A DNA stretch of 5,458 nucleotides, from the IMG/VR virus record IMGVR_UViG_2579778797_000013. The stretch is one strand, 5' to 3'. This DNA is from a virus (taxonomy: Duplodnaviria; Heunggongvirae; Uroviricota; Caudoviricetes). Shown piece after piece: positions 1,337-1,940 of the stretch. The position numbers and the translations under genes are program-made. The number at the start of each line of letters is the position of its first letter. Within the stretch, counting starts at the first letter, position 1. The notes under the pieces are model-generated. The model did no database searches. It saw nothing but the letters and a program-made list of their open reading frames with translations, and was not told the origin of the DNA.

Positions 1337-1365
1337 GGGGGTGAGGCATCACCCCCGTTTTTTTT
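1337..1365 (+). terminator. Rho-independent terminator, strong in the plus orientation and likely weakly bidirectional
   Basis: Perfect 8-bp GC-rich stem GGGGGTGA (1337-1344) / TCACCCCC (1349-1356) with 4-nt loop GGCA, followed by G then T8 (1358-1365). On the minus strand the same hairpin is preceded by A8 and followed only by CUCUUUC, so it is weaker for minus-strand transcripts. The element ends 2 nt before the stop codon (1368-1370) of the convergent fibre-accessory gene. Confidence 0.75.
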
Positions 1366-1367
1366 AT

Positions 1368-1940
1368 TTACGACTCCTGACCCACCTTATACGCCAGAAT
1401 CTCATCCACACTGTTCAGCGCTTCCAGTGCCTTCTTCATGTTGCGCTGCTGTACGTGAATTTCCATCCCTTTGGTGAACATCGCCTGCTCTGCAGCAGCA
1501 CTCAGAGCAATCAGTGTTTCAGCGTCCATCGGTACGTCATTATTGTCCGCATCCGTCCAGAAAAATCCCTCCGGCAGTATTCCCGCTTTCGCGGCAGCCA
1601 CTGACGGCTCAAGACGCGCCTGCGTCTTTTTGCCGTAGTCCCATTTCCTGCCATTGTGCTCAAAGGTGTAACCCGCCGCTTCCATAACATCACGCCAGGC
1701 ATTAATTTCCACCTTTTTCCGTTCACGTGACTGTGTTAAAGCTTCCGGCGGTTCTTCATACGGCTTAATCTCTCCATACCTGCCGGAAATTAAATCAGTA
1801 AAAAGTTGTCGTCCGTGATTTTCCGGATCATTTTCTGACGCAGTAAAAGGAAACCATTGCTCACCAATTTTTATCTCACAGGAAATATTACCCAATCGAG
1901 TATATACCGCCCCCCTGACGTCTGTTACAACAATCGCCAT
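1368..1940 (-). CDS. Tail-fibre-associated accessory protein (190 aa); possible tail fibre assembly/chaperone-type protein, perhaps DUF4376-like
   Basis: ORF-track frame 1368..1961, but I place the start at ATG 1940-1938, which is preceded by AGGGGGAAGA (1950-1941). The track's upstream start at 1961 is a TTG and overlaps the end of stf. The position immediately downstream of the side tail fibre gene matches the stf-tfa arrangement of lambdoid phages. The sequence does not resemble lambda Tfa or P2 G as I remember them, so the functional label rests on position only. Confidence 0.6.
   Translation of the reverse strand: MAIVVTDVRGAVYTRLGNISCEIKIGEQWFPFTASENDPENHGRQLFTDLISGRYGEIKPYEEPPEALTQSRERKKVEINAWRDVMEAAGYTFEHNGRKWDYGKKTQARLEPSVAAAKAGILPEGFFWTDADNNDVPMDAETLIALSAAAEQAMFTKGMEIHVQQRNMKKALEALNSVDEILAYKVGQES

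Follow-up and report, generated by a model that had tools for sequence, protein, structure and literature searches.

Intrinsic (Rho-independent) terminators combine a GC-rich stem of ~5–14 bp and a short loop with a tract of at least six U that starts 0–2 nt past the stem. In bidirectional terminators, typically located between convergent genes, an A-tract on one side mirrors the U-tract on the other, allowing some activity on both strands. In phage lambda, the junction between tfa (orf-194) and ea47 places the side tail-fibre/chaperone end beside variable cargo and carries a hairpin after the stop codon. According to Juhala et al. (2000), as cited in PMC4104026, the morons of lambdoid phages are promoter-gene-terminator units. 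Tree et al. (2014, PMC4104026) described small RNAs (sRNAs) of 51–60 nt at the PR' moron site, AsxR and AgvB, whose orientation is antisense or convergent to the antiterminated late transcript. Here we compare these systems with an element located at positions 1337–1365 of a 5,458-nt stretch of viral DNA (IMG/VR record IMGVR_UViG_2579778797_000013, hereafter the window), directly past the stop codon of a DUF4376 gene that occupies the position of a tail-fibre assembly chaperone. The window is the tail end of a lambdoid Escherichia coli prophage, followed by an Eib-type adhesin moron.

The element shares with intrinsic terminators a GC-rich 8-bp stem, a tetraloop and, on the plus strand, a U8 tract beginning one nt past the stem; both the stem and the tract fall within the ranges given above. 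It also has the layout of bidirectional terminators, with A8 upstream and UCUUUCGU downstream of the hairpin on the minus strand and the mirror image on the plus strand, the two sides being markedly unequal. In contrast to bidirectional terminators, its flanking genes are co-directional, and its strong orientation comes without an annotated transcription unit; no plus-strand transcription unit whose end it could mark was found in 887–1336. Compared with the lambda tfa junction, the position is the same, whereas the lambda hairpin is longer and lacks a U-run, the chaperone belongs to a different family, and the neighbouring gene is convergent there and co-directional here. The adjacent Eib-like gene conforms to the moron architecture, with its own leader, its own sense terminator in relatives and a location at a cargo hot spot past the tail genes; the element, however, lies upstream of that moron, is oriented away from it and accompanies the chaperone gene. 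Like the element, AsxR and AgvB carry intrinsic terminators against the late transcript beside a moron, yet they lie in the Q/lysis region and not at the tail end, and no Rfam sequence or structure match to them was found here. The Pas sRNAs were rejected as a match, as they are located in the Q/lysis region; the position of HnrS is given in the literature only as "within the late genes". By structure, the mechanism is standard Rho-independent termination. The kind of element is known and its recurrent arrangement undescribed: a description of the backward-facing layout at DUF4376 gene ends was not found in the literature searched, and a search for work on prophage antisense insulation, eibG promoters or the termination of lambda late transcripts gave nothing specific. 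On balance, and with modest confidence, we favour the reading of the element as an intrinsic terminator that is effective mainly in the orientation antisense to the tail genes, is carried by the chaperone cassette and shields the tail module against antisense transcripts out of the cargo or host flank.

An exact reading of the sequence agreed with the earlier note, which had reported a hairpin at 1337–1356 followed by T8 on the plus strand, with A8 upstream and UCUUUCGU downstream on the minus strand (Table 1). Beyond T8, the plus strand continues with AT and then TTA (1368–1370), the complement of the TAA stop of the DUF4376 gene; the order on the minus strand is TAA, AU, A8, C, hairpin and UCUUUCGUCAAC, the hairpin standing 11 nt beyond the stop codon. 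A pattern scan picked up the hairpin on each strand, with six G-C among its 8 pairs, a loop of 4 and the tails GTTTTTTTTA on the plus and TCTTTCGTCA on the minus strand. The hairpin itself has a folding energy (dG) of about -15 to -16 kcal/mol (z about -5), and the region 1325–1368 folds with -20.1 kcal/mol on the plus strand (z -5.05) and -16.0 kcal/mol on the minus strand (z -4.48), none of 200 shuffles folding as well. The window contains a single perfect stem of 7 bp or more with T6 or longer behind it, and 3 of 1000 dinucleotide shuffles contain one (0.003 per shuffled window). A d'Aubenton-Carafa-type score, computed with ViennaRNA energies and to be read as a relative measure only, was +20.7 on the plus strand (tail score 3.45) and -3.8 on the minus strand (tail score 2.34). 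The minus-strand tail UCUUUCGU holds 5 U in 8 and passes the scan threshold, yet scores only that low. The strand asymmetry is thus real, and the minus strand is borderline rather than nil, in agreement with the claims of the earlier note that the element is built mainly against the opposite strand and is only a modest terminator for the late operon.

The same backward orientation recurs at other DUF4376 gene ends. In an initial reading, prophage P-EibA and six other E. coli contexts each showed a different GC hairpin 1–12 nt past the stop codon, with a T-run opposite the gene strand and no U-tract on the sense strand. A survey of E. coli genomes, phage records, GTDB, IMG/VR and metagenome contigs then collected 174 loci (labelled L), of which 156 were usable (at least 80 nt downstream) and comprised 58 distinct downstream sequences. 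The backward-facing layout, namely the stop codon, 6–9 A often overlapping TAA, and a GC hairpin 0–1 nt further on with no sense U-tract, was present in 118 of the 156 loci (37 distinct sequences). One locus was sense-facing, as was a four-locus family (L038) read by hand; 17 loci were two-way or degenerate, and 20 had no nearby hairpin, mostly with another open reading frame (ORF) directly after the gene. Counted by family, one or two were sense-facing and three faced both ways.

The backward-facing hairpins fall into 12–13 sequence families whose stems and loops are unrelated, for example AGGGGC/GCCCCT, GGGGGA/TCCCCC, CGGGTGC/GCACCCG, ATGGGGGA/TCCCCCAT, AGGGGAGC/GCTCCCCT and ACCCCTCTGA/TCAGAGGGGT. 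The antisense score exceeds the sense score in every family, by 24 to 104 units, and in 11–12 of the 13 families the sense tail has only 0–3 U in 8, with sense scores of -28 to -71. The anatomy of the element, its strand asymmetry and the recurrence of one layout with different sequences are direct observations. Because the same bias appears at 118 of 156 gene ends with 12–13 unrelated hairpin sequences, this comparison argues that the backward orientation is under selection.

The gene that follows does not account for the layout. In the window, both neighbours, tfa-like (1368–1961) and eib-like (2–886), lie on the minus strand, so that the element is not placed between convergent genes. Across the survey, 9 of the 13 families are followed by a co-directional gene, encoding an Eib/YadA adhesin (the window, L002, L023, L008 and L010), a DUF1353 protein (Pfam 4e-32; L063, L073 and L080) or a second DUF4376 protein (L074). 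A convergent-gene terminator was therefore rejected as a general explanation. Other contexts comprise a convergent ykgJ-like cargo gene that lies ~135–160 nt from the hairpin and separates the chaperone gene from the host junction (L006, L007 and L009), an inserted IS66 (L005), the convergent ea47 gene of lambda, and the degenerate hairpins of L044 and L050, where a co-directional gene follows closely. In the DUF1353 contexts, the next gene is only ~100 nt away from the hairpin. The IMG/VR locus L074 carries two tandem DUF4376 genes, each with its own A-run and hairpin end, followed by a DUF1353 gene; the second gene ends in TAAAAAAA-CGGGTGCA-uuuc-UGCACCC, without a sense U-tract. This suggests that whole cassettes, terminator included, were duplicated or stacked. 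The family F hairpin (ATGGGGGA...TCCCCCAT) was met in four different downstream contexts, and 140 of the 5426 complete E. coli genomes carry it. P-EibA (L002) carries a second hairpin on the minus strand at ~4530–4565 (A7 and GGGGAG-ugcgcg-CUCCCC, no sense U-tract), giving two backward-facing elements in series before eibA, ~125 nt apart, the first after orf-191A. Judging from the co-directional neighbours, the tandem ends of L074, the P-EibA pair and the family F contexts, the element moves together with the chaperone-gene 3' end and stays backward-facing regardless of the next gene.

These neighbours also bear on the remaining claims of the earlier note. Its description of the site as the end of the late operon is only partly right, as the next gene (2–886) is a co-directional Eib/YadA-like moron with its own conserved leader and a strong sense terminator already lies inside the operon before the fibre gene. 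Its rationale, convergent transcription from the early-left or b-region, finds no counterpart here either: there is no convergent gene in the window, and in its full-length relatives all genes out to the host junction lie on the tail-gene strand. Only lambda and some of the other relatives have convergent cargo genes.

Other gene ends of the same prophages served as controls. The eib genes end in an ordinary sense terminator, ACGGCAGGC...GCCUGCCG followed by U7–8 (3' arm also given as GCCTGCCG), without an upstream A-run; these prophages thus do employ sense terminators at genuine ends of transcription units. As the element lies upstream of the eib-like gene, which has this separate terminator past its stop codon, it is not the moron's own downstream terminator. 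Moreover, the eib terminator has no U-tract in the plus direction, so that plus-strand read-in would cross eib and meet its first proper terminator at 1337–1365. The strong sense terminator inside the late operon is located at 3346–3380 on the minus strand, 12 nt upstream of the fibre-gene ATG (3333), and consists of CCGCAGACCGG-gaaa-CCGGCACUGCGG followed by U8 (dG -21.9, z -4.3); it probably belongs to an adjacent hok-like remnant (hok mRNA). Late polymerase must consequently read through terminators, so that late transcription would gain nothing from a sense terminator placed after the chaperone gene. Such read-through agrees with Q-type antitermination, which lambdoid phages are established to have, and by analogy the late transcription of this prophage would be antiterminated in the same way, Q lying outside the window. 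Finally, lambda-type Tfa (orf-194) genes carry a conserved 12–16 bp hairpin 9–15 nt past the stop codon (CCGCAG...CTGCGG; L011, lambda, 4073–4107; L103–L182), with compensatory arm changes among its variants (CCGCAGAAACGTT...AACGTTCTGCGG, GCCGCAGACACGT..., AACTGCAGGATATTAT... and TGCTGACATGTTGT...). It is not a canonical terminator, because a U-run is absent on both sides, which marks the backward U-run as specific to DUF4376 cassettes.

From this layout we infer actual termination, a source of plus-strand transcripts and a benefit to the phage as follows. The complete form of the signal, a GC hairpin with U8, would be read only by RNA polymerase moving on the plus strand, antisense to the tail genes. 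Plus-strand transcripts would end in the U-run at 1358–1365, 2–3 nt short of the DUF4376 stop codon, and would thus not overlap the tail genes. As part of the 3' end of the chaperone cassette, and not of the downstream adhesin moron, the element would act as a one-sided insulator against antisense transcription out of the variable cargo region past the tail genes. Such transcripts could arise from promoters within the AT-rich eib leader that are divergent or spurious, from read-in across the prophage end and host flank, or from early-left transcription after circularisation. In the sense direction, the element would be a weak terminator at most, and late transcription, presumably Q-antiterminated, would run on past it to the adhesin gene; an additional role of the hairpin may be 3'-end stabilisation of processed late mRNA.

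Several points weigh against this insulator role. Termination on either strand is a prediction from structure, and the families may share ancestry, which would make their independence incomplete. In the window's own family the element may be two-way, because the sense tail of 5 U in 8 exceeds the scan threshold. In the 450 nt left of the hairpin, no plus-strand gene, Rfam RNA or convincing promoter was found, and the transcripts to be stopped are therefore hypothetical; moreover, N-type antiterminated early-left transcription, as known from lambda, is not stopped by a simple terminator. The backward design was rejected as a universal property of late-operon ends, since lambda-type Tfa ends differ. 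Furthermore, the non-Watson-Crick stem positions in L008, L023, L041 and L191 are G.U pairs on the sense strand and A.C mismatches on the antisense strand (2–4 G.U on sense against none on antisense, too few positions to weigh), a hint that the hairpin has a role in the sense RNA as well. The G.U pairs would fit an explanation that we consider unlikely, in which the minus strand is the functional one and the hairpin serves as a 3' stabiliser, processing site or weak terminator of the tail mRNA, or partially insulates the adhesin moron from upstream transcription, the A-run/T-run being incidental or serving the sense RNA. That the minus strand passes the scan for terminator-like elements is consistent with it, and the long hairpin of lambda-type Tfa genes, which lacks a U-run and shows compensatory changes, indicates that a hairpin at this junction acts in the sense RNA or as DNA. 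The U-poor sense tails and low sense scores of 11–12 of the 13 families nevertheless argue against it. It also leaves unexplained why 6–9 A stand 0–1 nt from unrelated stems, which is precisely the spacing required of a U-tract read from the opposite strand. Moreover, an antiterminated late polymerase, already past the strong internal terminator, would not heed a sense terminator here.

In a further reading, which we regard as improbable, the element would terminate a discrete, unannotated plus-strand sRNA arising in the eib leader or spacer (887–1336), either divergent from the moron or acting as its cis-antisense regulator; the earlier note had named a plus-strand RNA from 899–1336 as its alternative. 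AsxR and AgvB, each with an intrinsic terminator, set the precedent of sRNAs against the late transcript (Tree et al. 2014, PMC4104026). A site TTCTGA-17-AATAAT at 1171–1199 on the plus strand would give an RNA of ~160 nt that folds somewhat better than shuffles (z -2.3), and the ~100 nt between hairpin and gene in the DUF1353 contexts would fit a very short RNA. The promoter matches, however, reach 8 of 12 positions in AT-rich DNA, the pattern scan found no promoter there, and Rfam (E<=1, AgvB and AsxR models included) gave no match in 887–1370. Moreover, the hairpin families have no common sequence upstream of the terminator on the antisense strand and so do not represent a single sRNA family, and the element between the two tandem chaperone genes of L074 makes an sRNA gene unlikely. 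Quite improbable, in our estimate, is a relic: a terminator once shared with a convergent cargo gene, left beside the chaperone gene after the Eib insertion and now without a role. The convergent ykgJ-like gene of L006, L007 and L009, ~135–160 nt from the hairpin, the convergent ea47 gene of lambda and the degenerate hairpins of L044 and L050 would fit such an origin. Nevertheless, at least nine families with unrelated sequences and a co-directional next gene preserve both the pairing and the T-run beside it, the element stands on both members of the tandem pair in L074, and two occur in series in P-EibA. This retention in co-directional contexts suggests selection rather than decay, and the relic is disfavoured.

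The terminator antisense to the tail genes may belong to a broader pattern. It is conceivable, though rather unlikely, that the stop codon/A-run/GC hairpin is a conserved end element of the DUF4376 cassette, or else that it marks a set of very short antisense RNAs acting as regulators of the neighbouring cargo. A cassette bringing its own backward terminator would prevent antisense transcription beside morons, a second cassette, convergent cargo or the host junction, and either form, if true, would constitute an undescribed design rule for the insulation of exchangeable modules in mosaic prophages. If the element works as predicted, it shows a prophage shielding its silent tail genes from transcription out of exchanged cargo (adhesins, DUF1353, effectors) or host DNA, by an antisense RNA stop defined to the nucleotide at a recombination hot spot. 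For annotators it would offer a simple signature of the true end of the tail module, and for synthetic biology a set of naturally one-sided terminators. Major concepts would be unchanged, the mechanism being ordinary intrinsic termination.

The features of the window are listed in Table 1; the minus strand is the strand of every recognisable gene in it, according to the ORF list and Pfam domains.

Table 1. Positions of the terminator-like element and of the surrounding genes and intergenic regions in the window.
Feature	Positions	Strand	Details
Hairpin 5' arm	1337–1344		GGGGGTGA on the plus strand
Tetraloop	1345–1348		GGCA on the plus strand, UGCC on the minus strand
Hairpin 3' arm	1349–1356		TCACCCCC on the plus strand
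T8 run, preceded by G1357	1358–1365	+	U-tract for the plus strand; A8 upstream of the hairpin on the minus strand
Minus-strand tail UCUUUCGUCAAC	1325–1336	-	5 U in the first 8; weak, borderline sense U-tract
Lambda J-type tip attachment protein gene, C-terminal part	3703–5439	-	Ig_J, Phage_Tail_Tip, Ig_GpJ_C
Collagen-repeat side tail-fibre gene	1954–3333	-	phage_tail_N, Collagen, Phage_fiber_2; same operon as the DUF4376 gene and upstream of it
DUF4376 gene, position of the tail-fibre assembly chaperone	1368–1961	-	Pfam DUF4376, E 1.2e-20; stop TAA 1370–1368
Eib/YadA-like trimeric autotransporter adhesin gene (moron), 5' part	2–886	-	Runs off the left window edge
Leader/promoter region (likely) conserved in Eib-type adhesin genes	887–1060	-	~70% identity to the eibA upstream region
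Spacer of this hairpin family	1061–1336		No annotated feature or conserved ORF

The true start of the DUF4376 gene is likely the ATG at 1940, behind the Shine-Dalgarno sequence GGGGGAAG, and its end is separated by 481 nt from the start of the adhesin ORF at 886. The latter shows 97–99% DNA identity to genes annotated as YadA-like or YadA C-terminal domain genes in 14 complete E. coli genomes; its counterpart in phage GER2 is annotated as "adhesin", a full-length allele contains a YadA_anchor domain, and the ORF matches EibA of prophage P-EibA (BLASTP 2e-9). The gene order of P-EibA, J, lom, orf-401, orf-191A and eibA, corresponds to the arrangement in the window; its GenBank record annotates other stem-loops, not the hairpin after the chaperone gene. 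The element is present in all close relatives, namely 14 full-length matches among the 5426 complete E. coli genomes and phage GER2, with T-runs of 6–8 and, in one relative, the loop variant GGTA/UACC. These relatives keep the whole block 892–1400. More distant chaperone genes can be aligned only from ~1381 of the window inward, so that the last few codons and everything downstream have been exchanged. In L004 (E. coli SCU-171, 4590–6892), the IS21-family element ISEc12 is inserted in the spacer at ~1277 of the window, parting the hairpin and chaperone gene from the eib leader; the hairpin stays on the chaperone side.

The region left of the hairpin is AT-rich (31–42% GC). The spacer 1060–1336 was found in 15 of the 5426 E. 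coli genomes by a distant-mode search, always in this context, and thus gives no comparative leverage. The only promoter-like sites on its plus strand are at 1127–1155 and 1171–1199. An extended -10 at 1311–1319 was unconvincing as a plus-strand promoter because the essential A2 is missing. A 27-aa plus-strand ORF (1246–1329), which ends 8 nt before the hairpin, was rejected as a gene on account of its poor ribosome-binding-site spacing, a frameshift in L004 and non-synonymous changes in L001. In L003, the host genes zinT and yodB are directed at the prophage on the plus strand. The Eib-type leader, of ~170 nt, is common to the window, L002, L008, L010, L023, L038 and L050 and contains a TTTGTATACA box ~25 nt before the ATG, a ATCAGATTTTCTTTA block and an AT-rich inverted repeat annotated as stem_loop in AF151091; a -10-like TAnAnT is located at ~1049–1044 on the minus strand. 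This leader is likely a regulatory region of the adhesin genes.

Between J and the fibre gene, the minus strand carries a remnant of a hok/sok-type toxin-antitoxin system (3412–3651), from which ~95 nt are deleted relative to L005. The terminator at 3346–3380 next to it is preceded by A8 on the plus strand, as a mirror image of the element at 1337. The Rfam sok match at 3492–3651, the sole Rfam match in the window, reaches 32.5 bits, under the gathering score of 59. A tblastn match to a Hok/Gef protein covers residues 7–34 only, with 96% identity, and the hok-type toxin gene of the remnant is probably truncated.

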